From Pocillopora damicornis (Eukaryota): a stretch of DNA of 63,734 bases. The translations under genes and the position numbers were made by a program. The notes beneath the pieces were generated by a model. That model made no database searches, was not told the origin of the DNA, and saw nothing but the letters and a program-made list of their open reading frames with translations. This document shows positions 11,022 to 59,585 of the stretch, piece by piece. Position 1 is the stretch's first letter. Every line of letters begins with the position of its first letter. The stretch covers positions 434,267 to 498,000 of the forward strand of contig NW_020845073.1 of assembly GCF_003704095.1 (NCBI RefSeq), in the 5' to 3' direction.

Positions 11022-14000
11022 TCAGAGGTCTTCAGCTGACTCCACACCTTCCTCTGTATCACCCCTGTAGCCAAGATCAGCCTCTGAAGTTACACCACTG
11101 CCAAGAACTGCCATCTGTTCCTTCAAACCCTTCAGAGTATTTGACCGACCACGATCTTCTTCCGTGTACGTAGTTGGTTCTGGTGTAGCAAGTCCTCGAC
11201 CTCCTGACACTTCTTCCTCCACTTCGGTGTCAGAATTCACCGGAGTGATCGCTTCATCCGCAGCGCTGTCGACAAGAGCATAGTCTGTATCCAGCGACGT
11301 AGAGCTACCTCCTGGTACGGCGGTCATGTAAGCTGCAGTATCAGTATCGGAGGTGATGTCCTCCCTTGCACTCATAAAGGACTCTGTATCACTGTCTGGC
11401 TCCGGACTGCCGTCTTGGTCTGCTTGTTCATCATACTCGTCTTCTTCATTTATGACGGTGTTTTTGGAGATTTCCATGAGCGAACCCGAAGGAGACATAT
11501 CACCAGTAACTTTATTAGGCTCATTTTCAGCAGAACTGAATGACTTCTTGATTGAATATTGTTTATTACCAGGCATCCCTTTGAATGATTCAAAATTAAT
11601 TTCATAGGTTACTTTCGGCTTTGCTTGTGATGATGAAGAATGCGCAGACGACTTCTGTTCAAGGCGCGAGGCGGAAACCTCCATCGCATTTTCGTGTCCG
11701 TTACTTTGCGTGACAGTTCGGTGTACCTCGGACGCAACTACGTGGCGAGTCACTGTTGTACTTTCGTTAGAAGCTTTAAACACATGACTTTCCGAGTCGG
11801 CTGACGGTGATAGACTTTGAAGTTGCGTGACACTTGGCGTCACGGAGACAATGACGTTATCAGTGTCACGTTCAGGCAGTGTCACGGTACTTACATAGGA
11901 CTGTTTAGAAGAAATCACCTGTCGGTGAACAGTACTTGTTACGGTCTTCACGGAAGTCTCATTTTTTTCCGACACATGGCGGCTGCCAGTGAAAGTCGCT
12001 GCTATTGTCCTTCGCGATGAAGGTGCGATATTCAAACTGCTTCGGTATCCTCCTGCCTTTTCTTGGCTGATGACAGATTCTACGTGACCGGTAGTCTCAG
12101 AAATTTCAGGCTGTGACTGCACGCTATCCGTCAAAACAGCTCTGACCTCTTGCTCCTTAACGACACCCAGAGCTGCTTGCCCTTCATTAGGCATACCTGG
12201 CGCTGAATAAGCGGGCGGTGGGACGTAATCTTTAGAAATGGTCTTTACTAATGCAGCTTTCACTGGCGAATCCCTTTCAGCAGTCACCGGTCCATGCAGC
12301 TCCGCGCCACCGTCAGGAGCATCTACAAGAAGAGCGCCATCCAGCAAGTCGCTTCCAGCAGGTTTAGACTGTAAACCAGTGCTGCTGTGTAATGGTACGG
12401 TTTCGATGAGATCTTGGAGTGCCTCTTCTTTAATATCTCCATTAGTCTTAGCCAATGGAAAACTTTCTTGTAGTTCAGTATTGCTTTGCATAACCTCCTG
12501 AGGTGCTCCCTCTCTAAGGACTCCATTATGTGACGCTGAAGTGATCTCAACCGGCGTCTCCTGCAATCCACTTTTACCGGTCTTTTCATCTGGTGGAGGT
12601 CCTAAACAATAACGAAGCGAAAATTGTCAGTATCCAACGAAATCGCCATAGAGATAACTCTAGTGTTCGTATTTGTTTTGCCTCACTTCAAGGTCGCCTT
12701 TTTATTTGTGGAGAAAATCTGCGTCTCCCTGCAAAACCGATATCTTTTCGCGAATTTGACAGACGTTTTTCCGTGCTTCGTTTGCCTTCGTTTTCAGTTC
12801 CAATTGGTTCCCTGTGATACACTCGATTCTATTTGTTCAAAGTAATATCTCTAGATTCCTTAAATTCAAATATCAATCGTGAAGCTCTTCAGAAAAACAC
12901 CAAGGGAACAGTTAATTATTCAGAATTTTTTTGAATAAATGACGACAGAAAAAGCGTGTGACTTTTACCCGTTTCATGTTCATTGGCAGTTGATGACACC
13001 TCAACCTCGCGAACTGCAAACTGCCTCTTAATCATTTCCTCGTTGATGTTCACATCCTGCGGTGGAATATCATGCAAAGATCTTTGAATTTCAGTTGAAA
13101 ATGGTTAGAGCTAGGATTGTATTTTTTCTTTTTTAATTTCTAGATAATTATGTGAATATTTTTTTTTGTCTTTATTTATTATTTGTTGTTCGAGCTATTC
13201 TTCCACCAGAATGAATCTTGACGCCTTCAGCTGTAATTAAGTGCTCTCACTAACTATCTAATTTTTGGCAAGCAAGAGCATATTTTCTCGTGATACGTTT
13301 GGCTGCTAACTGGGATTTTTAAAACAGAGGAATGCTGAGGAGAGAAAAAAATTATACTAAGGGGGGTGAGTGATAGGCAAAAGAGATATGATGGAATGTC
13401 GTTATTCACCCTCTCCTCTCTCTACACGCATAAACCTTACAAATCAGTAAGTGATTGGAAGCCTGTTACCCCAACAGGCTCTCTCTCCCTCCCCATTGCT
13501 AGCCAAGATAAACACAATCATTACTTACAGTTGGTCCTGTGGTGTCAATCAACTCAAGGCAAGGTATCTCCCCTCTGTATTTCACCACTCTTGCCATCAG
13601 AGAAACCCACTGTGCACAGTGGCTGAGGTGGTCAAAGTCATCAATTGATTCTTGACTCCACTCACCATCTAAACAACATGAAGAGTGATTTTGAAGCAAT
13701 AAGCATAATATAAATTTTGTACATTTATGACCATAAAATGAGTCCTTTCTTTCTGTAAAAGATAAAAATTATATTTATTAAATATTGTAGTGAGTTAATA
13801 GTCAGTCAGTTGAGAAAACCAAAAAGAGCACTCAAGAGACAAACAACAGTTGCTGTTGTTAAGGAAAACAGTTTCTCATTTTCTTTTTTTTATGCATGAT
13901 GCCCTCTGTTTTTCACAGCCCTGATTTACGGCTCATTTCTACAAACTGAGAGTCTAGCAAAGGCCACAAGAATTATTGTAGGGAACTATGATAGTAATTA

Positions 14001-17000
14001 GAAGGCAAAACTGTAACCAGACAAGCAAAATATTTATTGTATAATGGTTATACACAAATGCATCTTTGTCAACAATTTTGTGACCCAAAAAAGATTATTC
14101 TTCTTTGTTGGGTGAGAACAGAAGGCAACACTTGTTGAAAATTTGCACAAGAAGCATTAGTTTGATCATCTACTACATTAACAGTGAACCTAGTCAAATG
14201 TAAAATCACGATCCTATTACACACACACTTTTCAGTCATAAACCAAAATATCTGAAATAAGGTGAATAAAAGCTCCCAATTTCGGTCTATACAGATAATT
14301 TTAATCTCACAATAACTTCTGATACTTCATTTAAACAGTAATTTTAATACTAAGTGAGAATGATAAATATGTATCCATGAATTTGACTGCCTTTTAGATT
14401 TTTTATTTTTTTGTATGTCTAAGCACCTGGAAACCTATGTAGTGTATATTATACCTTTAGGTGTTACACCTGCCAGCCAACATTCAACAGCTTGGAATGG
14501 TAGCCGCTTGTGTTCTGGTCTATAAAAGGAAAGAAAACCTCACTAAGTAAAGTCAGTGATACTTAGGGATAGCAACACTGCATTCATGCTACAGCATACA
14601 AAACAGTATTAAAATGAATTGACCAAAAAACATTAATTTACAGCTCAATTCAATCAGATACAATGTTGCTGTGAATCAAGACAAGTTATTGGACTATAAT
14701 TAAATGATGATACTTGATAGCTCTCCGGAATTTCAACTGCTTAATTGTTCCATTATTTCAGAGTCTCACATAGATGTAAAGCTCTTGTTGGTATTTCAAC
14801 AATGAGATCATTACCAACTAATTGTCTTTAAGCATCCAAAAGAAATATAGAATTGAACTGGTTTTGTTGTCTAATACCCTAAGAGACAAATTCCCGTCAC
14901 CTTTTGAACCATTCATGCACAAAACTACAACAAACACGAACTGTTTGTTCTTCAGCAGGTTCCTTGCATTAACATTTATACTTAACGTAACGTACTCACT
15001 CACATCTTGGAGTGGACATTGTTTAGATAATTCATTACTGTTATGTTAATTTGGTTTTACAGCACTTGCTGAACAGTGCATTACATACTCAAGACTTCAC
15101 TTACTGTAGTTCCCTTAATTTGTCTTTGGCAACCCTTCCTGAGTCTCCATAATCCACATAATACAAATCCACTACACCTTCTTTGTTGATTTCTGTAATA
15201 CGGGCCCTGTACCAAGAGGAATCATACTCAAAGGGTGCACAGCAAATGTCTCCAACCTTAAAGGAATTTAGAACAGCTTGTGATTCAGAGGAGGCGTATA
15301 ATAGTGTCAAGTTTTTTGTGAGCTGATCCAGATCAGGTGAGTCCTTAGTGAGTAGCTGTACCCAAAAATGTCCTGGATTTTCAAAAGCTGATACAAATAC
15401 TTCAAAGAAGTCGTCTTTTGCAGGAAACTGTACAACCCCTGTTATTGGTGAAGCTAAAAGACAAAAGACATTTCAAATTTCAATAGTAAGTGATGTTTCA
15501 GCACCCCTGATTTAAACTACAGTGACTTAAGTAAGGAGCCATATACCATTTAATAAATTTTCTTAATTGTGGTTTGAGCTAATACTAATATGTAGCATCA
15601 CTATTTTAGAAACTCATAATCATTTACTGAAAGCTTTCTATGATGTCTCTCATAATTGTTATAACTCCCTTGGAAAGTTGAAGAATGCATAACTCAGTTA
15701 CCGATAATTAGTATTTCCAACTAATGTATATACAATTTTCTAAAAGGGAAACATGGCAAGGAAAGTTCTCTACTTTCAAATTAATAGCTCAAGTGTAAAC
15801 AGACTGTCCACAAGAGTAAATGGAAAGGAGGTAAATGAATGAAGTAGATAAATGGAAGAGAAAGGATTTGATCTAGTGATTCAATTAATACAAGGAAGAA
15901 AACCAGGTAAGTGATCAAGAAACAGAGGAACACAATGTTGCAGTTTTCTCAGCAAAGGCTAAGCACAAGCTCAGACAGATAAAAATTACAGTAGCATACA
16001 ATTTACATGTAGAATATTAATCAATATTAGAATATATTCAAAAAGTCTTCTATTCATTCACCTAGACCAAAAAAAAAAAGAAACAATAAATATATAAGTG
16101 ATATACCAACTGCACTTTCAAGTTTCCTTGGTGGACGTCTATTTCTCGGCACTCCAGCATCTCCCCTGCGAGCACGAATTTCATTATCTTCAGCCAACTT
16201 CTCATTTAGTAGTCCCTTAGCAGTAGCTATTTGATCAGAAGTCCCAATGACTGTGCATTTCCGTATAGGGCTGGAAATGTCATCACCATTACGATCAATC
16301 CTTATTTTAGCACCTACCAAGTGATTAAAAACAAAAATTAATGACAGAAGATAGCATTGTACAAAAAACACCAACTTAAAGTCAAATAAGCCATCACAAA
16401 TATTCACTTTTAACCCTTTAACTCCCAGGATCTGATTCTTAATTCTCTTCTCTGGCTGCTACACAATTCCCTCTGGGATAGTTACAAGAATTTGGTGTTT
16501 GATCAAGTTAAAAACTTCTACTTGATAAGCTGGAGTATTCTCATTAGCTGTTTGCTGGATAATGCATGGATATTATAGGGAGAAGTTACATGTTAATCAC
16601 TTTGAGGAGTTAAAGGGTTAAAAATGTTCAGTTTCTCTTAACATGATGAATATTAAGAAACTTTAGAAATGACAAAATTATGATAGATCACAAATGTTGA
16701 GTGGAACACTAGTATTTACAATATCTGGGGATAAAGTTCGTTTCACTTTCTCCAAATGAATAAAAAACTTATCCAATAAAATTTTTGAGTTTTTTTTCAA
16801 AAAATAGTGTTGTCCCACAAGGGTTATGAAATCCAGAAACTTAAATTTCAGAGTAAATTATAGCTAGTTTTCTGGAAAACTACAGTCGAATTATCGTTGC
16901 TTTTCATTTGATCTTCTTTCCTTGCAAATCACGTTGGGTTCCCTTGTTGAATATTGATGTTTGCTTACTGTAAGATTTAGCTTCAACTCTTAAGGAAGTT

Positions 17001-17540
17001 TATTTTGCTCTAGAGTGAGTACATTTACCGAAAATAAACAAATGTAACTTTACCTGAAACAGATGACATATGACGTATTGTCTGTCCTCCTTTACCAATA
17101 ATTCTTCCGCAAGCATGCTGGGGCACGAAAACTTCTTCCGATCTTATCACTGGTTGCTCTGCAATAACTTTCTTTACAACAATTTCGGCCCTTTTGACCT
17201 TTTCACGTTCTCCTTGAATAAGCAATGTTCTATCTTTACCTTGGCCTTCTTCATCTTCATCTATCAAATTCATACGAACTCCAGTGTCTTTTTCTATCTT
17301 TTTAATATTAGCTCCAGATTTTCCTATTATAACACCGACCACGGCTCGAGGGATTTTGACCTCGAGAGTTCTTTGGTTAGCGGATGCCACAACATCGCTT
17401 TCTTCAACGTGGCTAAAATCCTCATCTTCCTCTCCAAATTGGGAATTCTGCCGTCTCCTGTACCACAGATACAGTAATAATGCCACTAAAGGAACCCCAA
17501 TTGCAATAGCCGCTCTCTGTTCGACGGAAATGGTAGGCAT
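11022..17540 (-). CDS. TDRKH: Tudor and KH domain-containing protein (TDRKH/Papi), 971 aa; exons 17540-17054, 16313-16107, 15453-15105, 14519-14455, 13668-13529, 13056-12969, 12601-11022
   Basis: N-terminal TM (AIAIGVPLVALLLYLWYRRR); two KH domains (IIGKSGANIKKI, IIGKGGQTIRHM); extended Tudor (FEVFVSAFENPGHFWVQ...WYRARI...YYVDYGD...LPFQAVEC). All junctions GT-AG with matching phases (1,1,2,1,0,1). Confidence 0.9.
16410..16621. mobile_element. piggyBac-type MITE (204 bp plus TTAA target duplications) in TDRKH intron 1
   Basis: TTAA|CCCTTTAACTCC ... GGAGTTAAAGGG|TTAA: perfect 12-bp TIR and TTAA TSD. Confidence 0.85.
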
Positions 17541-18501: not shown

Positions 18502-21500
18502 ATGCCTTCAGATATCATTACGAACTTTTGGCCATACTTTTGCCGAGGAGAAGTTGTTAAAGGTTTCGGCAGAGGAAGCAAAGAATTAGGAATTCCGACC
18601 GGTGAGTGTCGTGCGAAGAAATTGGATTCAAGCGGATCCAAGTGTTCGTTTTTCACGCAGTGGGAAAATAATATTACATCTACGTATTCGGTTCGGATTT
18701 ACTTGTTGCCAATTTTGTTCTGAGAAATCGTATTTGACATTGACTGAAAGTGGATTAAGCTAGCGCTAAAAGTCGTGTTCATCGAAGTTCTTCGCGATGC
18801 TATTTCGGCCGTTGATTAAATTTCGGTGTGGTCATCATGCTGTGCTATTTGTAGCGGAACTTTGCGCGACTCACGCAAATTTTGCTGTGTCATATATTTA
18901 TTTGCATTTTATTTTCATTTCTTTCTTCTGACCGATAACCTGGACTTAGATACTCGAGTGACATAGCACTGACAGAGTCCACTGAAAAATGTAATTCGCA
19001 TTTAGTGTTCGATTACGTAGGCGTTTCTCTCTCTTTCTTTCTTTTTCTTCTGTTTAGTCAAGGTGACCTACGATCGAGCTAATAATATAATTCCCATTTT
19101 TCTTAAAAGAATAGGATGTCAAAATGGTTTTGTGGTTTTTTTTTCTGCAAAACAGGACACATGTGAGCGATGTGTTGTAAAAATCTTTCAGCTGTAGTGA
19201 TATCAGTTATATATGAGAACAGTAGACTATCACAGAGTATTCAGTAAAGTGGGTAACATACACTAGAAAGGAGAGAGTATTCGTTAGAATTTGTTTTTAA
19301 AAGGATTCAAGTGTGCCATTTATTTGGACACTGGGTTTAAATTGAACCAGCTTCTGATTATGATGAAATTTCTTATATATCAAGACAACTTGCTTGGGGA
19401 TCTATGCTGTCCAGTGTACATTGCTTAAAAATAAAACCAAACTAACTTTAAGTTCCCTTTGAGGAAACTGGTTAATGGAACTTGCTAGTCAAATGTGTAA
19501 TCCCTTATCCAGAAGAATCTGATGCTTCTTCTTTTAACCCTTCAGCTCCCAAGATAATAATAATAATATACAGTATTTATAGAGCGCTAATTCCCAATGG
19601 TCCAAAAGCACTTTACATAATAAAAATAACAAAATCCTAAACCTACAAAACTACATTGTCATTCTATAAAAATTCCCAATGGTCCAAAAGCGCTTTAAAT
19701 AATAAAAATAAGAACAAAATCCTAAACCTACAAAACTACATTGTCATCCTATAAAAACATCATCATTCTATACAACATCATAACCAATTTTAAAAAGCCA
19801 CGTCTTGAGCTTAGATTTAAAAGAAGAAAGGGAATTACAAGATCTAAGTTCGAATGGAAGTGCATTCCAAACAGAAAGTGCGGCAAGATCCCATTAGTAA
19901 TTCTCCTAACTGTCTGCCATATAGTTCTTGTGATGTTAGTTTGAGTAATCTGGTATTGAATCAACTAATAATCCCCTCATTAAGTTTTTTCTTTATTCTC
20001 ATCACTTGTCTGCTCAATATTGTATTGATATTGTAAGGAGAAATTCTGTCTTGGTCACTCATGGGAGTTAAAGGGTTTATGTCTCTGATGATTTGCTGAT
20101 ATTCAAGCTCATCCAGGAATGTCAAAAGTTCTATTAATGTACTATCATCCTTTCTTCTCTGGATTAGCTCAAAGGCTGACCTGCCATTTTTAGCACTAAT
20201 AGAGCTTCAGAGAGTTATAATAGACTGTTGGCCCCAAGATACCCTAGCATACATGCAGTAACCCACAGGTAAATAACCCTTCTTTTCTTTATTTGCAGCA
20301 AACTTCCCTACAAGTGTGGTGGATAATTTACCAGAGACAATAAGTACTGGAATATACTATGGTTGGGCAAGTGTTGATAGAGGACCTGTGTATAAGATGG
20401 TGATGAGTATAGGCTGGAATCCATTTTACAACAACACCAAAAAATCAATGGTAAGAGAAAGAAAAGGATACCTTGGATTCAGATCATTGATAGCAGCTCA
20501 AAGGAGTTTGAAACATCCCTCCGTAAAATATATTTTGCCGTTTATATTGAACAGTCCTATCTGGCAAATATCCTCCCTCTATGCTTAACTGTTTTAAAAA
20601 AAATTTGTGAAAATTATATTTGGGCAATTTTTTTATTTCTAGTGTATGATCAGAGGTAAACTTTGTTAATTTATTGGGTTTCAGGAGACTCATATAATTC
20701 ATACTTTTGAAAGTGATTTCTATGGATCAGAGCTTAGTGTGGTTATCCTTGGATTTATTCGACCAGAAAGAAATTATCCTTCATTAGGTTGGTATTAGTC
20801 ACATTTCTCAGTTCTTATGCTATATGCCTATGAATAGAAAAGGAAAGGGCACAACACTTTCCTCACTCTTTTTTATCCCTCTATCATTTCCTTTGCTGCC
20901 TTCTACATTTCAGTGTTGTTTCTCTATTTCTGTTTACTTGTCTGTTGATGTCATTTTTTACCATATGTAAAGAAAAAAAATATAGGGCCCACACCTGTGT
21001 TGATGTTCACAGTACCTTGTTCACTGGGCTGTTTTATTTCTCACCTACATATCAAATTCTAGAAATTGTTTACCAACTGCATAAAAACATTTTAAAATGT
21101 TATTGTAGGTGTGATCCCCCAAGGGATAGGTACAACTGTGCCATTATCACACCAGGCACTCAATTTCCTTTTTCAGGATCTATGTTGAACTTGTAACATG
21201 TGTTTTGATTCAACTGGGGTTTTCCAGCATACTAGGGCACGACTTTTACTGTTTCACTGGGGCTTAAATAGTTTCCTAAACATTTATTTCACTTATTTTT
21301 AATAATTAATTTTCTCTGTCTCAAGAAGGCTGTTGAAGTTGACCAGATTTGCTTCTTTTAAGTGCAGTATTCAAATTTTTTGTTCTTTGTGGCAGTAAAA
21401 ATAATAAACAGTTTATACAGTTGCATATTTTTCATTTGAGTTTGGTTTAAATTTTAAAGTAAATATTGAAATATAATGGAGCAAATAGTGCTTGATTTTG

Positions 21501-24013: not shown

Positions 24014-27000
24014 ATGTGTTCGGGGAGCGAACTGTCTTGTGTGAGAGGTGAAAATGCATGGCGCTTTCCTCTGTCATCGGGACTGCTTGGGTTTGTGTTA
24101 GGATTGTCAACTTTTGGTGCAGCGATGAAACTGTCAGAATACAAGGACAGTCCTAGTCTTCCTCCGATGATAGCTGCAATACCAGTAAGTACAACAACAA
24201 ATCAATAACAAACGTGTTTGTCAAATCCTTTGTGCACCGTAATTATAAAGAATAAATTGTATTAAAACCATTGTCAGGTTTAAAGCGTCAATGACGTTTC
24301 ATGGAAGTGTTTTCTTTAAATTGATCGATTCTTGGACAGATTAGTACTTAAGAAATCAACGAAAGTTCTATCGTACCAGTAAGTCTCTTTTAGACTCAGA
24401 AATCAGCAAGCTGAATTTAAGAGCTTCCGTGAGAAACAAATAAACGATCACATAAGAGCTAAAACTTATGTTTCTCATCGAATGTGATATTAGGTCACTA
24501 GAGCAAAAATTAACTTCGAATTAAGTAACGCGAAATATTTCCCATCTTTTGATTGAAATTTCAAGAGATTTTACTAAAGCCTTTCAGTGAAATTTCACCT
24601 GCTGAGTGGAAATGGAATCCATAGAATTATAAAGAATAATGGAAGACTGCAAAGACAAGTGAAAGAAAAAATGAAATGTAATAAAAACAAAACGTCACGA
24701 GATGTGCACATTCCTGTTTCCTGAAAGAGGCAGTAAAGACATGAAAATAATAAAGTACAATAAATCAAAGGAGTGGAGTGTGGGATGCATTGGGACAAAA
24801 ATATTCTGTAATTTTTCTTTCTTTTTTTCTCTCTTATCTAGATGTTAACTGCAGGGCTTTCAGGTATGGTGGGAGGACGAATGAGGAAACGTTGGCTGGT
24901 ACGTAAACATGTTTTGTATTCTATCGAAAAAGAATTTCTTGGTAATTCAGTTCCAACCGAAGTGCCCGGCAGGGAATTCGAAGGGAGTGGAGACCTTTCC
25001 TTCATGAGCTTCTTGGGAATGCTCCGCCCAAAGAGCACAATTTGTAAGCCGTTTCGGTCTGAAAACGCGTGTAGGTTTGACGATGATAGTGTGGCTTAAA
25101 TTAAATTTTTTAATGGGACCACGAGTGAGTTTAAACAACTCCTAATGAATTAAAAGAGAAAGAGCAGCAACGAACATAGAACATTCGAGCTGAATGTTTG
25201 AATGAATTCATGACTTTGCCACTGATGCGAGGCTTTATTTCTCAGTTCTACAAAGCTTAATGGTTTTGCATATCCATTAAAATTTCAAGTACCAGCTCTC
25301 TAAAAACTGATACAGAATACGGCACGCTATGATTTGAAATTAGGGTCACGATTTCAGAAACTGAGCTGCACCTTTGCATTAAGAATTCATGGCGGCAACC
25401 CATTTCCCTTCAACTTAACAACCAAGAAATTTCCATAAGAAATTACCCATAAATAAAAAGAATCAGCCATTTTGGCCTGGTTGATAGATGCTTCAATAGA
25501 TAGAGTTTGAGTGTGTAAAATATACAAGCCTATAGTGAAACCCAGGTCGGATCGTTTCTGTAATCTGAAGGGCCCAGTTGTATATAGGGCAGATAGCAAT
25601 ATCCAACGGATAAATCGCTATCCAGCGGATAAGTGATGGTGAAACGTATAGCGTTATCTACCGGATAGAGATTTATCTTAGCAGTGGATAGCGTTATCCG
25701 ACCTTACAACAACTCGGGCCTAGTGTTTAAGTCCTCGAAGAGGAAAATGACCAATAGGAACCCATTCCGGAATCATAACCCCGCAGCCCGATACTCGCTG
25801 CCCTTCCCCCCCCCCCTCCCCCGACCTTATTACCGCTTGCATGACTTAAATCCGACGTGTTTATCAATGTTTATGTAGCCAATATCACTTGACTGGTTTA
25901 CGCGTTCGCTTTCCTTTTTTTTTTCTTCATTGACTTGTGTCATAATTGTAATGAAAGAGGGAAGAAGCAAAGACAATACGTACGTATGCAACCCTACTGT
26001 CCTTCTTTCCACAGATTTCGCTGCACATGGGTCTTTGTTTGGTTACAGGAGTCTTTGGTCTTCATCTTATGTTCCTTTTCATGGGGAGAGAGGTTAAATC
26101 AAGAAATATTCATAAGGCTAAATGTCTTTCCAACTACCAGGGATCTTGTAAGCTTACTTCATTCTTGTTGTACGTTGCGTTTATGTAATCTAAAAACCGG
26201 ACTGACACCGCATATTACTTGTGGTGGAGGAGCTATAGGTGGTTTCCTTATAAGGGAAGGGCTGATAAGCAAACTAGTGATAAGTCTAGGGCGGCGATGT
26301 CGACTGGAACATGGAAGTGTAAAAACATGGCAAAACTTTTCTTGCCTAAGTTAAAACTGAGTCTTTGTGTCTCTGTTCCTCCTCCGGCACTAGACGTTAC
26401 TTTGCTGCTCATTACTTATTAAACTCTTCTGTCGCCTTCTCTGTCTATGAATGTTAAATACGCAGCTCTGATATCGTTAAATATCGTTTAAGCACGAACA
26501 ATAATCATATGATGCGTATGTCCTGTTTCAGATTACTGCCACAGATACGCTACAACTGTTGCTATGTCAGGACTATCTGTTCTAGCGATTACGTTAGCTC
26601 CTTTGGGAATTTTATCATATGCCGTCATCAGGCAAATATCTGCGTATAACGTCAATGAAGTCCAGGTAAGTAACGGTAAACATCTAATTACCATAAAAGC
26701 TTTGATATGTTCTCCTCTCTATCGAGTCTCCTTCTCAATTAACTTGATTTTTCTGAGGTAAAAAAAATTTTAGAGATTGATACATCTCTACCCGCTGATC
26801 TATCCCTACGACACGACCATTAACTTCTTCTTTTTAACATTTTTAACGTTGTTTTTCTATTTTTTATTTCCACTATTCCAAAGGAAGCAAATAATCCAGC
26901 CTTTGAACCCGAACTATCTCCGACTAAGACAACAAATGAAGACCAAGTAGAACATCAGCATCAACAATTTTTTGATAGAGCTGCAAATCATCCACGTAAA

Positions 27001-27762
27001 ACTGAGCCTAAACCAGAGAATCAACGACTAGCAAACTTTAAAAACTCACATGGTGATGAGTGTCTTCCACCTAATCTCAGAAAACCGTACGGTAGTGATC
27101 TGGTAACAACTAATCCGTCTCAAAATAAAGTGCGGAATCACCGATTTCTTCACCATAAGAAGCCGCATGACGATATGCGACTTCCGCCCAATCAACGACC
27201 ACCTTACCGGGGTGATCAGGTAGGAATTCCTAAACCTAGTGCTCAGTCTAAACCGCCGCAGAATCTGGGTCCACTTCACCAGAAAAACTCACATGGCGAT
27301 AAACGACTTCCACCCATCCACAAGCAGTCGTTAGGTAACAATTGGGCAGAAAATCAGCCATCTAAAACTGATCCTAGACCGCAGAATCACCGAGCACTTT
27401 ACCATAAGAACTCTCATGACAATACGCGACTTCCTCCCAGATACAAACAACCTGACCATGGCAATCGAGAGTCAAGTGAACCTCGCAAAGGTGAATCCCA
27501 ACCCAAGAATCTCCGACCACCTCATAACAAATATAAACATGGCGATGCGCAACTCACAGACAGAGACGTGAATCGCAGACAGCCTTTCGAACACAGACCT
27601 TCCCGTGACCTCATGAGGTACAGTAGGCACATATGTCAGCAGCAAAACATGAATCAAGTTTCCAGAGCACCAACGACACGGTTTGGACAAAGTCACGTGC
27701 CATTGGCCAGTGGCAGAGTAGTGAAAGGTATATCGAACACGACAGATAGCTCGTCTGCATAA
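24014..27762 (+). CDS. CD20/MS4A-like four-TM protein with a long His/Pro-rich repetitive C-tail, 457 aa; exons 24014-24184, 24842-24898, 26015-26147, 26532-26665, 26884-27762
   Basis: Four hydrophobic segments and a Cys pair in the second loop (KCLSNYQGSYYC). GT-AG junctions with phases 0,0,1,0 and a 57-nt exon 2, identical in layout to the convergent paralog. Family assignment by topology and exon layout. Confidence 0.72.
25571..25720. mobile_element. MITE with GGCCCAGTTGT...ACAACTCGGGCC termini
   Basis: Terminal inverted repeat plus internal repeated palindromic TATCC(A)nnGGATA units. Confidence 0.65.
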
Positions 27763-34547: not shown

Positions 34548-36376
34548 CTATAATTCATTGGCCATTATTTCAGCTAGTTTATCACTAAAATAGTCCTCAA
34601 CTTTTGAAGAAATTTTCCCTTGTCTTGCATGGAACTCAAGCATTTCCAGTAACAGACATCTTGTTTTGGCAGATGAGTTATCAGAGAGTATAGTGTCTCT
34701 CATCATTCCCAAGAGTTCCTCTGCTTTCTCCTGTCCAGAAGAATCAGCAAAATGTAGTTACACAAAGTTAGCCAAATTAATGTACATGACTACCACTGAT
34801 AGAAAATAGGACTGTCTCCTTAGACCAAGGTTTGAAGATAGATACATGAAAGATTCACTTGCATATAGAGGTTCATCTTTTCAAAATATCTTTATCTACC
34901 ATGACAAGGAGGAAGAAGCTTCCAATTTGAATTATCTTAGGCAGCAGTAAGTCCTAATTAAAATTCTTATTTTTCTGTTTCTTAGTGATTGGTTTTTGCT
35001 AAAAATATTAATGGGTTTTTGGATTTGATATCCAATGTGGTTTTTGGTGTTTCCTATTTGACCTATTTGGGTTCCAGTTTCTCTTCGATCTGAGTGGCAA
35101 TTACGTGCCTCCACTGATCTCAAACAGCAGCTAATTGCAAATGTTAACAAGACAATTGCATGACAAACCAATTGAATTATTGCAGGGATCCCTAAGTAGC
35201 GTCTGTGTAGCCATACCCTTCCCCCCCAAGGTGAGGGGAAGAGCAACTACACGGAGGGTACAGCTAAGCACAGAACATTGTCAGGGTTTCTTTATCAACG
35301 CCACCTTGGAGTTGGTGACCAAGTTACAGGCCACATGCGACCGATTGATTCAACATTCCAATTACATCTCTAAACTTTCAGGTCTTAGTTCATAAATGGA
35401 AATGTTAGATTAGGGATTTTTGATAAAACTTTCCAGAGCTATAGCTTTCTGTGACTGTAAAATTGCAATCCTATGAAGGTCTTTAGTGTGAATTTCCTTA
35501 ATTTAACTAGGCTCCATTACCAGCTGCTGAGTCTGCAGAGACCATGCTCAAGGTCCTGAAGAGAGCAGCTGTTAATTTAAGCAGATACTAGAAGATACGA
35601 ATGCCAAGTCCATAATCCATAATAGGCCCCAATGCCCCCTTCCTAAATGTTTGATTCAGCTGTGATAAAGTAAAGAGAAATTGAGTGCGGGTCACTCTTG
35701 GCGGTTAGAAGGCTAACACAACCCTGCTTTTACCTACCTGATTAACGGTCTCCAAAAGAAATCCTACACCTTTAAAATTCTCATAAAAACAGTCTATTTC
35801 ATCTCCTTCGAGCTCTTCATCATTATTGCCGTTCTGTCCTTCGCTCGATAATAGCTCACTCAACGTCTGATGTACCGCTGCTGCTAGGGGTCTTAACGGG
35901 GCCTCACCAGTTCGAAGATGACGAAAAAGTTCGCAAATAAAACACGCTAGCCCGATCCATTCGCTTGTGGAGTTCGCACGAATACTTTCTCTCTTCTTGT
36001 ACTGTTCTTGAGTAGATTTCAACAAATCGCCTCTAAATGCAATTCCAAATGATTCATCAGAGCAAAGCTTGTTAGCTACTTTGGCAGCTAGAGGTGCAAA
36101 ATCGCTCTTCTTGATCGTCCGCTGAATTAAATGATCAACGACGTCCTTAACTTTCGTCGATGAACTAGATTGTGAAATGTGGTGAGAAATTTCCTTAACT
36201 TGTGTGTCCAAAGTGTTTTCCCTTAGATCGTTCAGCACCTTTGTCAAATCAAATTCATTAGACGATTTTTCTGTTGAAATATCAGCTTGCTGCTCAGATT
36301 TTTCTCCCGATTTGCCCGGCTTTGGTACTCCAAATCCACCTCTGCCTCGACCACGGCCTCGTGCAGCGGCCGCCAT
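34548..36376 (-). CDS. MIF4GD: MIF4G domain protein, MIF4GD/SLIP1-CTIF family, 273 aa; exons 36376-35738, 34730-34548
   Basis: FRGDLLKSTQEQYKKRESIRANSTSEWIGLACFICELFRHLR...DEIDC...VGFLLETVN...LLLEMLEF aligns by eye with SLIP1 (FRRGLLNRLQQEY...WVCYVTFICNIFDYLR...EEVDC...LLLEIIEF); N-terminal RGRGRGRGG. Confidence 0.75.
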
Positions 36377-36685
36377 CTTGATCACCAGTGCCAGTTGCTT
36401 TGTTACCGGGAGGCACTAGGACCAGTAAAGCTTTTCAAGTAGCTCCTCACTGGGGTAGGGTTGTACACCTTCTGTGTTTAATTCATTTTCACCGAGTCTG
36501 TGTTCTGATGTGTTTCAAGATTTTCGACAAACCAAATTATGAGGTTGCGAAACTGTTTTTAGAACGAAAAAAGAACGTTATTCTGAACTTCGTAGTACAA
36601 AACATTTTTGCCAAGCCTCCACCAGTCCGGTTCACATTGTAATAATACCCAGTACACTTTGCGAAACGCGATACCAAGATGGCGC
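36369..36685. promoter_or_regulatory. Bidirectional promoter MIF4GD/SMU1 with TISU/YY1-type start contexts
   Basis: ATGs 302 bp apart; minus strand CAAGATGGCGGC (36380-36369) and plus strand CAAGATGGCGC (36675-36685). Confidence 0.6.
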
Positions 36686-39600
36686 TTGAAGTAGAGTCTG
36701 CCGAGTAAGTGCACTTTAATGTTGTTATTTGTGCATGTAAAGGACTGATGCTCCAACCATTACCTCTGATCAAATCACTAATTGATAATATTTCCAAGGT
36801 TATCGCTTTATTTTTCGAGAGAGCTAAATTATTGGAAAAATTATCCAAGAAGTAACCACGTGTAGGGGCAGAAATTACGCGACGCCGATTATGAAAGTCA
36901 GTGCAGACGAGCAGGCAATTGTTTTGATGGCGTAGGGTGATAGAATATTCCTTTCATGAGGGGAACTAAGATAACCGTTTGGTTTGATCTACAGTCAGGA
37001 AAATAGCGGCAAAATAAATTTGTTTTAGGAACGATCGTCTTGAATGCTCTCTATTCAAACAGCTCTACAGCGTTGGCTGTACTTGTTGTTGTTGTCAGGT
37101 AGCTTTTTCGATAATGGTACTAGGACGGAGAGGAGTTCAATTCGGTTTGTAATCATTCGAGTGATCAAAAAAAGCGGACGACCGCGAAGCAGGAGTCCTT
37201 TTTGTTAATTATGAGTATGATTACATACAGAATTGTACGACACGAAGTCCAGTTGCCAATTAATCAAAACTATGACAAAATTTTAAAAAGAAAGAAGACA
37301 TCGGTTATAAGTTTTCATAAAAAAGCAGCAGTTAACTCTGCAAAATACACAACAACAGTGCATGCACATGATGAGTACTGTCCATTTATGCAAGCATGAT
37401 TGCATCAACTGTCCTACCAATGATAAAATCAGGCTGGTGATAACCAATCAAGTTTGAGAATTTTGTTATAATTTTGATTAGTTTTAGAAAAAAATAGTTG
37501 AGGAATTTCATGTACCTTATCAAGCACCTGATCACTTTACTTAGTAACCATGGACAATTGATTCAAACAAAGGTACAATATAACATGATAAGAAACAACA
37601 ACTCTCAGTGGAAAATCAGACTGCATCTACAAGAGCAGGCAAGGATAAAAACCTGAGTAAACTAAGAAAAAAATCCAGCAAGCTCTCAGAGCAGGGCACA
37701 GATTGAATTAAGGACCTGATGATGTCAATTTGTTTAACTAGCTGTGTCTAATCAATTCACAGTTTGGTAATATTATGACTTGATTTAAATTTCAGTGTGA
37801 TCCGACTGATCCAACAATTTCTTAAAGAAAACAGTTTACCAAGAACCCTTGCAACTTTGCAGGTACATTAAGAGTAATAATAACTGCTGTAAGAAAAGCA
37901 ACTGAAAGAAGATATTAGAGAATTTCCTTCTGTGTGCGTCAGGAGGTGCTTGCTTCCCATACGTAAATGTAAGAATTGGAATCCCTGTGGTTTCCATTGT
38001 TGTGTTGTTAGCAGTATGGAACACTTAGTTTGTTATGTTTCCTGCAGGAAGAAACTGGAATTACCTTGAATACTGTTGACAGTGTAGAGAGTTTTGTAGG
38101 GGAAATAAACAATGGCCACTGGGATACAGTCCTTCAGGCAATTCAGCCACTCAAGCTACCTGACAAGAAACTTATTGACTTGTATGAACAGGTAGGGGAG
38201 ACCTTTCTACATTGCTCACATTTATTGAAGCAGAATCTAAAAGCTGTTTGTCATCATGGCAGCACATTTCTCCTCTTTCTCTTTGTTTGTAGTGTCCTTA
38301 ACATTTGAAATTGTGTTATAATTGTGATGTAGATTGTTTTGGAGCTCATTGAGTTGCGTGAACTGGGAGCTGCAAGGTCATTGCTGCGCCAAACAGATCC
38401 CATGATCATGTTGAAGCAACAACAGCCTGATCGATATCTTCATCTGGAAAACATGTTGGCTCGTTCTTATTTTGATCCTAGAGAGGTAAGCCATTGATAG
38501 TTTAAAAAAAGGAACAGATATGAAATTTCATGAACCATTTATTAGTTAGTGAGTGTGAACGTGGGAGCCTTTTGATGGCAGAATAGATAAGATTGGACAA
38601 ATATAGAAATGATCCTTGCAGTTATGAACACTACTGAACTAGTAGTTGAAATAAGGCCTGAAAAAAATTCAGGCCCATACAGGATTTGAACCTATGACCT
38701 CTGCAATACCAGCGCAGTGCTCTACCAACTGAGCTAACTGGGAGCTGGTCATAATTTTGGATCCAAATAAACCTTCAAAGTGGTGAAATAGTCAGATGAG
38801 ATTAGATTGGGCCATTCTTGCTCTTGCTGGGGAGCACAGGGTCTCCACCATGGCTCTCAGTTTTTTTGGCAGTTCCCTTTGCCTCCCTCCAAGTGAAGAT
38901 GGCACAATGCTGCAAATGTTATTTTCAACTATTTTCCAATTCACTTTTTAGGCATACCCAGAAGGTGGTAGTAAAGAGCGAAGGAGAGCTGCAATAGCAC
39001 AAGGTATTTATGTCTTTAAACTAAGTATTAATTGTCTTTGTTTTGATGGGAACCATAGTTTTTCTTTACTAAGTTGCCTCCTGTAAAGAGCAAAAATTTC
39101 ATGGAAGGCTTTTTTTACATACACAATTTTTAAAATTTAGTTTTATCAGCTGAGTTGAGTAAAATAATCAGCCATGGTATTGAGTTTCTAAATCTGATGT
39201 TTTAGGGTTTAGCTCTTTGCCACAGAAAATGTGAATAAATTGCGTTCAGCATTGTTTTGGTTTGGAATTCTGTGCTGTGTTGAGAATTACCATTTCACCA
39301 TTTTCCAGCCTTGTCAGGTGAGGTGTCAGTTGTACCACCATCTCGTTTGTTGGCACTGCTTAGTCAAGCACTTAAATGGCAGCAGTATCAAGGTCTTCTT
39401 CCACCAGGAACTACTATTGATGTTTTTCGTGGAAAAGCTGCTGTGAAAGATGAAGAGGAGGAAAAATATCCCACTCAAATGAACAGAACCATCAAGGTAT
39501 GCAATGAATACTTTTATGTTTTCTGTTCACATTTAAACCTTTGGTTGTGAGTACAATAGCCAAACAAGCATAAGATATTGTGTTGAGTTATGAGCTGAAC

Positions 39601-42600
39601 AAGAAAGTTGCACCATATTTTTAATGAGTATAAGTGTGCTTCTTTTCCCCTCAGTTTGGGGCCAAATCACACCCTGAGTGTGTCAAGTTTTCTCCTGATG
39701 GGCAGTACTTGGTGACTGGGAGTGTGGATGGTTTTATTGAGGTGTGGAACTTTACAACAGGAAAGATCAGAAAGGATCTCAAGTACCAAGCTCAAGATAA
39801 CTTCATGATGATGGATGACTCTGTTTTGTGTTTATCCTTCAGTCGAGATAGTGAAATGTTAGCATCTGGAGGGCAAGATGGAAAGCTTAAAGTATGATTT
39901 TACTTTGTTTTTGTTAGATTGTGGTTTTGAATGTGATTTGTAATGAGGGGGGATGAAGGTTTAGGTGTCCTAAATTTTACAATAGAATCTTGACGACTTG
40001 AAATGAGAAATATTTGAAGATAACAGGGAGTTATAGTTGGTTAATAAAGGATGATTAGCAATGCATTTGAAAGGAGGTGGAGTTTGCAAGAAGTTTGCTT
40101 AACCCTTTAACCCCTAAAAGTGACCAGCATCTAATTTCTCCTTACAATATCACCACTGAATCGCACATTAATGTCATGAGAATAAAGGAAATGATCACCA
40201 GCTTAAGAATCTCTTAATTTTTGGACAAATTCTCCTTGTCAGCACCTTAGTAAATGTACAGAGAGCAGTATGGAGAATATGTATACTGATGTTAGGGTGT
40301 AAAGGGTTAAGTGAACCCAGTTGTTGATAGGGAGGTTCCATTTATCTTAAGGTTGTTTCCTTCCTGCTCTCAGATTTTGTTCTTTCATCTGATTGTTCTC
40401 CTTTCTTGTTTTACTCTGTTTCTTTGTCCTGTAGTATTTTTCTCTCCTTCCTAAATCATTTCTTTTATGTCTGTCGGTGTAATTAATTTTCAGATTGTAT
40501 TTCCAGGTCTGGAAGTTACAAACTGGTCAGTGCCTGCGACGTTTTGAGAAGGCTCATGCTAAAGGAGTAACTTGTGTAACATTTTCTCGTGATGCGAGTC
40601 AGCTGCTGAGTGGTTCTTTTGATATGACAATAAGGTGCGTATACAAACGCAAGATGCTTTTTCCATGAGACAGTTTGAGGTAAACTAAACTTCTGGTAAT
40701 GTTGCTTGGTTATGCTCAGTGATTGGTACTGGAAACTCTTGCGTTACCCTCTCCACCAATCAATTGTAAAATTTAAACCAATCGTAGCTTGGTCTTTCAC
40801 ATTTTCCTACACTTAATGATCATTACTTGTAATGAGTTTGTGTTCTCATTGACCCCTGTATTGATCTTTGTTCTGATTGTTGCCCGTGATTACTTTGGCT
40901 TTGGGACACTCATTTGAAATGCGGTATGTGGGGAACATGCCCTAGTACTTTCCTTTATGGACACACTATATACCACTATATACATATAGGCATACACTTA
41001 CATGGAACTATTTCAAAAATTAAAACGATATACAATGTACCTGTTGCATATGCAGCCTTCCTGGTGAAGAGTGGGCTGAAAACAAGACACGTTAGATAAA
41101 ATCCGAGAGTTTGCATCTGTCCTTAAAAGAGAGCATTTAATGTGGTGGACATTTTATTAGAACTGTTTTAAATTTTTTCTGTACTTTCCTAAGTAATCAG
41201 GCCTTTATGTGTAATGGATTAAAATAGGTGCAGTTTTAATACTAGCTCTACTATTGTCATTTTCCTAACCTTGACTCATTTTTGCTAAAGTATGTAACCT
41301 CTTTGCAGAATGCATGGGTTAAAATCTGGCAAGACCTTAAAGGAATTCCGTGGACATACATCGTTTGTAAATGACGCTATTTTTACAACAGATGCCCACA
41401 ACATCATCAGTGCCAGTAGCGATGGAACTGTTAAGGTACCCAAGTGTAATCATGAATCAACATTAAAGCTCTCTCTTTGAACAAAGGGATTTTAGAATGC
41501 AGTCAACAGACTCCATGGAAATAGAAACAGATAATTTTTTTTTATGCATGAGAAATTGTCTGCTTGCAGAGTAGGCACAGAAGTGAAACTCATCTTTGTA
41601 CCTTAAACAATCAAATATGAAGTTAAAGGGTGTTTAAGATGTAATTGTTCATTTTTCATTGCACTCATGTTAGCACTCTATAATGCCTGATTTTATAGTT
41701 GTTCCATTTTATTCTTTTGTTCAGCTTTGGAATATTAAAACAACCGAGTGTCTTCACACGTTCAAGCCATCAGTAGGGAGTGTTGCCACTGATATCACAG
41801 TAAACTCTGTGCATGTGATGCCAAGAAATCCTGAACAGTTTGTGGTGTGCAACAGAACAAGCACTGTACTGGTTATGAACATGCAAGGACAGGTAGGATT
41901 CATGACACATGTTTGTCTGACAACCAATCTAAAATGTTAAATCTACTACACACTTAACACTTTTGATTAGATTTCGATCCTATTGCTGATGATTCAAGCA
42001 ACATAATAGGACCCTTGTTGCAGATGTATCTTTCATATGGGAAAAATTATGATCTTTTTTTTTGTCTCTTAATCAAGAAATTTCCTGTTCTTCTAGGCTG
42101 ATTGGGAGCTGTTGTGAACTACTAAGTTAGCCACACTTTAGTCTGTGAGGATTCAACTTCAGTAAATCTAAGATGAATACAATTTTCCATTTCCTGATGG
42201 TACTGAAATTTTTGTTTTCCTCCAGATTGTGCGTAGTTTCACCAGTGGTAAAAGAGACGGTGGTGACTTTGTGTGTTGCACCCTCTCCCCCAGGGGAGAA
42301 TGGATATACTGTGTAGGGGAGGATATGGTCATGTACTGTTTTAGTGCCTCTACAGGAAAACTAGAGCAGTCTTTACAGGTATGTGGTGACATTTTATTGA
42401 GTGGTAGGTTTTTGCCTTATTTTTTTTGCATGAAGAAAACAAAGAATTGTAATTGTTCATTTTTCATGCCCTTAAAATTGGCAATGTTTGAGTATATTCA
42501 AACCTCATTGTCGAAAAGGCTGTTTTCTTTGGGTTGGAATTCTGCACAGTTATAAATAATCCCCATTCATTAAAAGAGGCACCCAATTTAAACCTCTACC

Positions 42601-56805: not shown

Positions 56806-58538
56806 GCAAAGTTGTCATTCCGGCTTTCAAACACGATTTTACGGCACAGCGGCAGATCCAGACGTAATTAACTTTAACCAAAGATACGATGGGACTCCCT
56901 TCTAAAGACATTTACATTTTTTAATCATACGCTGGCAGCGATAAAGCAAACGGAAGAATGAGTTCCGAAACGCCTTCTGGTTGAAACCGAAAAATTGCTT
57001 GATGAACGAAATAATGTAATTCTTTCATTCGAACACTGAGTGCTGAATCTCTGTGTCAAACAAAGAGATTTTGCAATACAGTACTGGTAATTTACCTGTG
57101 CTCTGTCTTCAATACATTAACCAATGTAACTGTAACGTACTATGAGTTTGAAAAATAATAAATATAAATAATTTAACTCTTTTGAGGCTTACACTCGGCT
57201 CTTTAACTCTGTAAGATGATTTGAAGCTGGCAACTGTCGACGATACTTCTGATCTTATTCTTCTTTTAAGACACGTCTATATAAATTTGCATGATAATTA
57301 CCGCTGAACGAAAATATTGCTTTCGCTTGTGAGTTGTTATTGCACAAGGTCACGATATCACACCTAGCTTCACACGTAAACTTTGTTTTGAGGAAATACT
57401 CGACAAGAGAGCCAATTTTTGTAGCCTGATCTTTGTTATAGCCGATTGGCAAAGCTACGCGAGAAACAACTTCTTATCATTGGTGTGTATCCACAGAGTC
57501 AGGTACGTGAATTTCTGCACAAGCTTTCTAATATTGCGTCTAGTTCTTGATAGTATTTGCGATTGGCCATTTAGCTACCTGCTGGTTGAAACCAAAAGTT
57601 TTTCAAACCTTGCGCTTCGAAATGATTGAAAGAGCACAGGAACGAAGTTTCTGCCTCGTAAAGCAACGAATTTAAAGCGCCCGAGGTCCATTTGGAAAAA
57701 CATGTCGCTGCTAATTGATGCTATATGTAAACAGATCAAAGAAACTAGATCATTAGATACTTACTTAGTTCTAACTACTTATTAATTGCGGTTTGGCCTT
57801 TGAAAAAATAGAGGGGCTATGTTTAATGTCACAATTTTAAATTTTTTAAAGGAGTTTTTTTTTCTAAAGCCGAAAGAAATAAAAATATCATTTAAATTTT
57901 ACGAGAAACGCTTGCGTGACATTTAGCAGCGTTAAGTTCATCATAGGAAATTTTGGAGGTCGATAACTGCAACGATTTGTCTTTCTTTGATTTTTTTTAA
58001 ATTCAAAAACAATTTTAGCAAGCTAGTTTGCACTCTGATGATTTTTTGGTAGGGAATGAATAGGTCTTTTGGATCGTCAGTCCGGATTTGCCCATCGAAG
58101 AAAATTTACATATCATACGAATCCTTTTAAAGGCGAATGAAGTCGGTGCTCATAAAAATATCACTTTCTCACCCTACAAATCTCCCCACAATAAATTATT
58201 TTGTAATACGTCATGGATTTCGATAGGTGTTTGCCACTGTAGCAAATGTGCTCAGGTGTGTTATGCTGAGGCGTGACTTGTTCACTCACCAGAAGGGTTT
58301 TAGCTTGTGTCACGCTCTCAGTCCGCGGCGCATGAAAAACAGGGGGTCACATAAACGAGCTGTTGTTTACTTCACAACTACAACCGCTCGTTGTCTCTCG
58401 CCCGCCTTGTACTTAGTCTCCACGGACTGAGGGCCTGGAGCCTGTAATTCCATAAGAGAGCCAGGAAGAATCATGTGACTAATTATGACGTTGTTGTCGA
58501 TTTTTTCATAACATTGCAGATCACATTTAAAAGACGCC

Positions 58539-59585
58539 ATGAGTAACTTTGTTTGGTGGAGGAACATGCTGGGTCAAAAGCTAACAGATGAAGAAATGAG
58601 AAACATAAAGTACCCGGAAACAGAACTCTACACTCATGTTACTTTCAAGACCATTCAAGCTGGGGCGCTTCTTGGTATGGTCATTATTGCTCCTGTAGTT
58701 CGCCTTGCTGCTAGCCCTCGCACTTTAGGGGCCGTTAAAGAGACAGCTCTTCGGTATGGAAGAAATGGAGCGATCATTGGGATTCCTCTGGGACCTCTAA
58801 TGACTTTTGCAAAGGCTAACAGTGGTGCAGGCATTGATGATGACGGAATGTTTGATCGTACATATAGATTAAGGTACAAAGATTTTAAGAATTTATGTAT
58901 ATGCATAGCCTCTTTTTTCGAGATGTGTTGAAATCAACCTAACCCTATAACCCCTTAGAGCGACTAACAAATCATTTATCCTAGTGATATCGATCACAGC
59001 CGAGTCAAAGACTTAAGTTATAAGAATGATGTCAATGATTGCCGTGTAAAGAGGCTCTGGACTGTTAAACAAACTCTCTCAGTCAGTGCTGTTGGTAATG
59101 TGCAGAGGAAATCGTGTAGGGATGTAAAGGATTGAAAAGGGTGTGTTTTTCCAGTTTTCTGAAAATCAAATTATTTCTTGTCCTTCACAATTTCCTGGCA
59201 TATTTGCACGCATATACACAGTTCTCAGCTTTAAAGGTGAGCTGGACTTGCGAAGGAGACGAAGGGGGTAAATATCTTTGTACTTGTGTGTACCTGGTAG
59301 TCCATTAAGTTTGCAGTCCTTTGTACTTGTTTTTACCTGGTACTCCGTTAAGTTTGCAGTAGGTTTGATCACAAGAATGCTAAAAGATGCATTCTACTAT
59401 TTTGATCCAGGTATAACCGGAACCAAATACGAGTAGATCAAGCTTCCATTCTTGGATCCGTAGGAGGTGCAAGTGGGAACTTTTTGCTAGGGGGCTCAGC
59501 TGTGTCAGGTGCCGTGGTAGGCCTGGTTGGAGGAACTATCGCTATGGGTCTATACAACACAGTTAATGCCGAGAGGCATAAATGA
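58539..59585 (+). CDS. DUF1757-like Gly-rich membrane protein, 169 aa; exons 58539-58873, 59411-59585
   Basis: Open frame across a phase-2 GT-AG intron. The motifs P.TELY.HV..K..Q.G..LG and DRTYRLRYNRNQIRVD resemble DUF1757 (recognition only); several G/A-rich hydrophobic helices. Confidence 0.75.
58940..59134. mobile_element. Old piggyBac-type MITE copy in the DUF1757-like intron
   Basis: CTAA|CCCTATAACCCCTTAG ... TAGGGATGTAAAGGG; colinear with the 40103 copy but diverged. Confidence 0.6.

Follow-up and report, generated by a model that had tools for sequence, protein, structure and literature searches.

Results

The TDRKH locus of Pocillopora damicornis

The stretch of DNA analysed here (the window, 63,734 nucleotides) contains on its minus strand a seven-exon gene, which runs from an ATG at 17540 to a stop codon at 11022 and encodes an open frame of 971 amino acids. 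All six introns have GT..AG borders and the joined frame is open throughout. The parts of the gene are, in window coordinates:

17054..17540 (-): exon 1, with the ATG, the N-terminal membrane anchor, KH1 and the start of KH2 (Pfam, RNA contigs)
17457..17513 (-): N-terminal transmembrane segment, residues 10-28, followed by RRR; mean hydropathy 1.77, the sole such stretch
16107..16313 (-): exon 2, remainder of KH2 (Pfam, RNA contigs)
15105..15453 (-): exon 3, Tudor domain (PF00567, E 2e-25; RNA contigs)
14455..14519 (-): exon 4, extended Tudor fold (RNA contigs)
13529..13668 (-): exon 5, extended Tudor fold (RNA contigs)
12969..13056 (-): exon 6, last portion of the folded region (RNA contigs)
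11022..12601 (-): exon 7, coding part; 526-residue S/T/E-rich tail (residues 446-971) up to the stop codon, predicted to be disordered
10655..11021 (-): exon 7, 3' untranslated part as covered by RNA contigs

An earlier note on this DNA, made from the sequence alone, had proposed that TDRKH carries a single-exon tail of about 525 residues and had named the splice junction 12969/12601 as one point to check. The last exon indeed adds 526 residues in frame, and all six splice junctions are present in RNA contigs. Junction 12969/12601 was found in seven of seven RNA-type runs, namely X1, X5, X6 and X11 from four studies and X10, X12 and X14, which are RNA or guessed to be RNA, whereas it is absent from the DNA-like run X15, in which a contig crosses intron 6. 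This rules out an artefactual joining of the tail exon to TDRKH. A single 3341-nt contig of run X6 combines the tail exon with exons 1, 2, 3 and 5. In six runs the contigs reach down to 10654-10673 and in X5 to 10310, and contigs of this kind cannot fix the true 3' end of the transcript.

Several further features were observed in the window. RNA runs also contain contigs of low depth in which intron 6 is kept, and these may be derived from pre-mRNA or DNA; reading through into this intron (12919-12968, -) leads to a stop codon after about 17 codons and would give a TDRKH protein that lacks the tail. In intron 1, a high-copy repeat (16408-16625) is covered very deeply by contigs of RNA runs. 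The neighbouring features are:

2044-2874 and 8515-9210 (+): local duplication that comprises two similar open reading frames with Ly6/uPAR three-finger domains in tandem
20277-20585 (+): riboflavin kinase exon (PF01687), upstream of TDRKH on the opposite strand
26824-27759 (+): Pro/Gln/Asn-rich open frame of 312 codons, no Pfam match
35708-36415 (-): exon with a MIF4G domain
38012-42552 (+): exons that resemble SMU1, no Pfam match
58512-58928 (+): exon with a DUF1757 domain

The gene is the coral ortholog of TDRKH/Papi

In Pfam searches, the upstream exons gave two KH_1 matches and one TUDOR match, and the Tudor motifs WYRA and YVDYG are present. In a midpoint-rooted tree of extended Tudor domains (36 rows, 28 of them on one side of the branch in question), the coral protein groups with vertebrate TDRKH and insect Papi with a support of 100/100, apart from eight multi-Tudor rows. 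A search with exon 1 as query found one TDRKH copy in the genome. The seven-exon gene is the coral ortholog of TDRKH/Papi. Full-length orthologs with a tail come from Acropora muricata, a Montipora cluster and P0002, whose cluster holds Stylophora pistillata (84% over the tail). An AlphaFold2 model of P0002 shows a helix at residues 6-38 and folded KH and Tudor domains, so that Pfam, hydropathy and the model agree with the order of membrane anchor, two KH domains and Tudor domain first read from the sequence. TDRKH/TDRD2 of mouse and human and Papi of Drosophila and Bombyx likewise have an N-terminal anchor, two KH domains and one extended Tudor domain.

The anchor of mouse TDRKH targets the protein to mitochondria, and the protein recruits MIWI and PNLDC1 (PMC6411938). 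By analogy, the coral protein is probably located on the outer mitochondrial membrane. A search of the genome for CAF1-family proteins, which easily misses intron-rich genes, gave four matches, including one PARN-like open reading frame, and no PNLDC1 was identified among them. The PARN-like gene (L007, 877-2736, -; G000 C2824) is a single uninterrupted frame of 619 codons.

What sets the coral protein apart is the tail: non-cnidarian TDRKH homologs have a median tail of 66 residues (110 rows listed), whereas the coral tail has 526 residues and a conserved tandem motif. The expectation that vertebrate tails are short holds for most mammals, mostly with 59-63 residues, but not for frogs (204-382 residues in most rows) or Arapaima (442 residues).

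The tail is predicted to be disordered and contains conserved islands

A Pfam search of the 526-residue tail gave no domain match, and the tail is rich in serine (13.7%), glutamate (10.3%) and threonine (9.1%). It had been described as acidic and disordered. Residues 435-969 of P0002 have a pLDDT below 50 throughout in the AlphaFold2 model, which was built from a shallow 7-row alignment that may itself lower this value; the tail composition agrees with disorder. Strong acidity is confined to the last ~150 residues, and 30-residue windows between tail positions 181 and 240 are net basic. The motif region described below is predicted to be unstructured and to face the cytosol, as suggested by the single N-terminal anchor. 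The following elements were identified in the tail:

12225..12269 (-): conserved island SPVKAALVKTISKDY; pattern in 10/10 hexacoral tails
11382..11447 (-): acidic tract upstream of motif 1; positions -5 to -1 are nearly all D/E/S/T in 13 tails
11361..11381 (-): phospho-FFAT-type motif 1, SFMSARE, residues 853-859; score 1, with conserved Ser and Ala columns
11313..11333 (-): weaker tandem copy, AYMTAVP, residues 869-875; aromatic-x-S/T-A/P in 13/13 tails, score 7 here
11271..11291 (-): DTDYALV, LIR-like by pattern only and rejected; Tyr not conserved
11052..11087 (-): conserved C-terminal island SEADLGYRGDTE; in 10/10 hexacoral tails with a variant in P0333, second-best conserved window

At least two islands besides SFMSARE are thus conserved, and conservation alone therefore does not name the partner of the motif. 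A look-up of Stylophora tail residues 820-969 in the ESM Atlas gave no usable look-alike.

The string DTDYALV, which had been likened to an LIR motif, is present but the comparison did not survive alignment: its Tyr is replaced by S, A, A, T, T, a gap and I in the seven aligned orthologs, and is lost even in the ortholog with 84% over the tail.

By eye, scleractinian and octocoral-type tails also have a basic-hydrophobic motif in common, SRRTIAATF at 11991-12017 (-) of the window, with the counterparts SKRVMAANF at about residues 797-805 of Xenia P0014 and SKRLLAANF at about 716-724 of P0333. It precedes the FFAT-like motif by ~210 residues in corals and by 25-30 residues in octocorals.

SFMSARE is a top-tier phospho-FFAT candidate

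To score the motif, we used the phospho-FFAT matrix of Di Mattia et al. 2020 (PMC7705450, including Tables EV4 and EV1). Five of five published scores were matched with the penalty at positions 7-8 set to 0 if one of the two is acidic (0.5 on the sheet); this change has no effect on SFMSARE, in which both positions are acidic. The core of the motif spans 11381-11361, and the start given in the earlier note, 11384, includes the preceding Glu. SFMSARE has a score of 1, compared with 0 for MIGA2 and 2 for FIP200. With F/Y at position 2, S/T at position 4, a small residue at position 5, acidic or S/T residues at positions 1 and 7, an acidic flank and a score below 3, it is a top-tier phospho-FFAT motif on the published matrix. 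About 117 of 20,373 human proteins score ≤1; in Table EV1, row 120 is the last with such a score and MIGA2 is listed in row 4 (PMC7705450).

The matrix over-calls. A score below 3 is reached by 2,079 human proteins, not all of which are genuine in the authors' expectation but just a subset (PMC7705450), and human TDRKH itself scores 2.5 at a site that is a buried strand of the Tudor fold. We therefore determined how often a score ≤1 arises by chance. It was reached in 1.6% of 3000 shuffles of the whole tail and in 3.4% of 3000 shuffles within 40-residue blocks, and in a control set 8 of 132 long multi-Tudor proteins score ≤1. Hence, the motif is only modestly beyond chance in one species alone. 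Local-shuffle p values per species are 0.013-0.059, and 0.12 for Xenia, which indicates that acidic S/T-rich tails favour low scores.

The motif is conserved across Cnidaria

A SFMSARE-type motif is present in all 13 cnidarian tails examined, with a score of 1 in 11 and of 2 in Xenia and the Xenia-like P0333, although the species are not independent, with close tails of coral type in eight of the 13 rows. The set consists of the window, eight full-length or near-full orthologs and four tail fragments (tail rows P0001-P0006, P0011, P0014, P0271, P0301, P0333, P0343 and P0361). The motif-bearing taxa are scleractinians, Nematostella, Actinostola, Xenia and the P0011 cluster; as the last clusters with Hydractinia symbiolongicarpus, the motif spans Hexacorallia, Octocorallia and Hydrozoa, and the conservation that the earlier note had proposed to look for in cnidarian tails was found. 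When the motif was extracted with a pattern that demands positions 2, 4 and 5, these were F/Y, S and A, respectively; position 3 is M/L/V/I/A, position 6 is R/K/L and positions 7-8 are acidic or Ser. Unguided alignments of seven full-length rows place the same motif residues in the same columns. Ser4 and Ala5 are two of only five invariant columns in the 534-residue tail frame (alignment A3), and no other 7-residue window of the tail is as well conserved over six lineages as SFMSARE (2.89 versus a mean of 0.30, sd 0.79).

All 13 tails have a second aromatic-x-S/T-A/P unit, located 12-17 residues downstream of motif 1. It scores 2-3 in nine of them and 6-7 in four, including the Pocillopora window. 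The weaker copy seen in DTDTAAYMTA is thus a conserved element with a poor matrix score in this species.

Outside Cnidaria, one of 110 TDRKH homologs among the matches listed scores ≤1 and three score ≤2. The 110 are the 120 matches listed minus seven cnidarian and three multi-Tudor rows (P0030, P0076 and P0111), with 23 matches more beyond the listing. A search of 50% clusters was dominated by multi-Tudor proteins, and its only additions were four tail fragments from corals and one octocoral-like row with a long tail. Among the matches listed, eight bilaterian tails are longer than 300 residues; six of these score 3 and two score 2, and they do not share the cnidarian motif. A TDRKH with a strong, conserved phospho-FFAT candidate is a real, spliced and cnidarian-wide variant.

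The genome encodes a VAP with intact binding residues

VAP exons of the same genome (G000 contig C992) are almost identical to P0127, a member of a cluster that includes Pocillopora proteins, and keep KVCFKVKTTAP, HKFMVQ and MDSKLKC, which contain the named FFAT- and phosphate-binding residues. A second MSP-domain gene is located on C1554.

Discussion

A close likeness to the coral motif is found in MIGA2/Miga (mitoguardin), an N-anchored protein that has an S-F-x-S-A-x-E core, SFFSATE in MIGA2, behind an acidic S/T flank. In MIGA2, Ser1 and Ser4 are both phosphorylated, which drives VAP binding (PMC9239997, PMC7556861), and the SFFSATE phosphopeptide pulled down VAP (PMC7705450). The two proteins differ in other respects: MIGA2 has a lipid-transfer domain, Phe at position 3 and a score of 0, whereas coral TDRKH lacks a lipid-transfer domain and carries domains that bind RNA and PIWI. 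Position 3 of its motif is Met, the motif has a second copy and the linker is far longer. FIP200/RB1CC1 has an identical F-M-S-A core in DFMSAVN and is a cytosolic autophagy scaffold unrelated to coral TDRKH outside the motif; its phosphopeptide bound VAP-A, VAP-B and MOSPD2 (PMC7705450). By analogy with these proteins, phosphorylated SFMSARE likely binds the VAP MSP domain. We propose, as a reading that is by a small measure probable, that SFMSARE acts as a cnidarian-wide, phosphorylation-gated VAP-binding site on TDRKH, which would link the anchor membrane, probably mitochondrial, to the ER.

In structures of VAP with bound peptides, position 2 and Ala5 are located in pockets and phospho-Ser4 meets K50/K52 of VAP-A (PMC7705450). 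Based on the MIGA2 and STARD3 structures, we hypothesize that acidophilic kinases phosphorylate Ser1 and Ser4 of SFMSARE, that the two MSP pockets accommodate Phe2 and Ala5, and that the K43/K45-equivalent lysines are the partners of phospho-Ser4 and the K87 equivalent that of phospho-Ser1. Avidity for clustered VAP could be raised by the acidic flank together with the second copy. A single S>D exchange failed as a mimic in STARD3, which has Pro at position 5, where SFMSARE and MIGA2 both have Ala. If the N-terminal anchor targets mitochondria as in mouse, the tail would be left in the cytosol, and the ~410 disordered residues between the Tudor domain and the motif would form a long, kinase-switched leash that could position a PIWI-binding scaffold at ER-mitochondria contacts. 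With a leash of this length, the link to the ER would be loose.

The Ser4 residue also fits S-x-x-E, a CK2 consensus. One might read the conserved block as a cluster of CK1/CK2-type phosphorylation sites recognized by a different partner, for instance an E3 ligase that binds phosphorylated sites or a protein of the piRNA pathway, and its likeness to FFAT as what acidic, S/T-rich phospho-motifs with one aromatic residue produce. Five S/T-x-x-D/E sites lie within 45 residues, the conservation reaches over ~25 residues and is accompanied by further unexplained islands in the tail, and the matrix yields false positives; these points speak for this alternative, which we nevertheless consider unlikely. 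Against it, Ala5 is invariant and positions 3 and 6 are free, which fits the MSP pockets, and the aromatic-x-S/T-A unit occurs as a tandem pair. This pair pattern, which was derived from these tails, is present in only one non-TDRKH protein among 440.

Alternatively, the motif could bind an MSP domain with no mitochondrial tethering involved, either because cnidarian TDRKH resides on a different membrane, such as the ER, where it binds VAP or MOSPD2 in cis, or because binding only traffics or regulates the protein. In the literature consulted, mitochondrial targeting is shown for mammalian TDRKH only, and this genome has a second MSP-domain gene. On the other hand, the coral anchor is laid out like that of mammals, with a short N-terminus, moderate hydrophobicity and basic residues behind it, and MIGA2 is an N-anchored mitochondrial protein in which one such motif builds contacts, and we consider this alternative improbable. 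That the motif is a chance match in a neutrally drifting low-complexity tail is very improbable and largely refuted by conservation: per-species shuffles give p values of only 0.01-0.07 and one planthopper homolog also scores 1, but the tandem motif can be aligned between Hexacorallia, Octocorallia and Hydrozoa, whereas the remaining tail is 17-25% identical or unalignable.

If SFMSARE is a VAP-binding site on TDRKH, one might speculate further that cnidarian TDRKH is a kinase-switched ER-mitochondria tether that places PIWI loading and piRNA 3' maturation at the contacts, and that this arrangement is ancestral to cnidarians and absent from most bilaterian orthologs, which reach the contacts otherwise. 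We regard this extension as doubtful. The same holds for the trimming of piRNAs at ER contacts, suggested in the earlier note, which goes a step beyond the VAP-site reading and which we think rather unlikely: the CAF1-family matches include no identified PNLDC1, and mammals and most insects trim piRNAs without such a motif, as reflected by the single row scoring ≤1 among the 110 non-cnidarian rows listed.

A position of TDRKH near ER contacts is not new, since mammalian TDRKH is reported to be enriched in mitochondria-associated ER membranes (MAMs) (reviewed in PMC7072634). The candidate novelty, as judged from the sequence, is a VAP motif built into TDRKH, none having been found in the literature searched. 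A search for TDRKH together with FFAT found no paper, and subscription papers and proteome-wide FFAT tables may bear on this. No TDRKH-VAP link was found by title in a search of the TDRKH, VAPA, VAPB, ER and piRNA literature, and TDRKH was not mentioned among the matches listed for TDRKH, MSP and VAP interactomes. For cnidarians, the search found no experimental data on the location or partners of TDRKH. One paper among the matches listed for cnidarian piRNAs mentions TDRKH, and in the text consulted of PMC5731801, a paper on Nematostella piRNAs, neither Papi nor PNLDC1 nor mitochondria are mentioned.

The maturation of piRNAs is linked to mitochondria, and factors of the mammalian pathway have been found in ER-mitochondria contact fractions, but the literature searched names no direct molecular link of piRNA factors to the ER. 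A VAP hook on TDRKH that can be mutated at two residues makes a role of the ER testable through piRNA length, PIWI loading and nuage position. Nematostella and Hydractinia, which both keep the motif, are tractable laboratory cnidarians. If our proposal is true, an RNA-silencing scaffold joins the known ER-mitochondria tethers.

Some bilaterian TDRKH tails carry FFAT-like strings of their own. These are DVYLDAE at residues 912-925 of P0008 from Branchiostoma (by eye), MFESASE at residue 1266 of P0012 from Haliotis (score 2) and TFISAET at residue 508 of P0069 from Laodelphax (score 1), which do not align with the cnidarian pair and are possibly independent gains or chance matches. The annotated Xenia protein P0014 runs into ankyrin repeats after about residue 850 and is likely a fused gene model. 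In P0333, an extra phospho-FFAT-like string, EFFSSSD (score 1.5), is located at residue 46, directly behind the membrane anchor.
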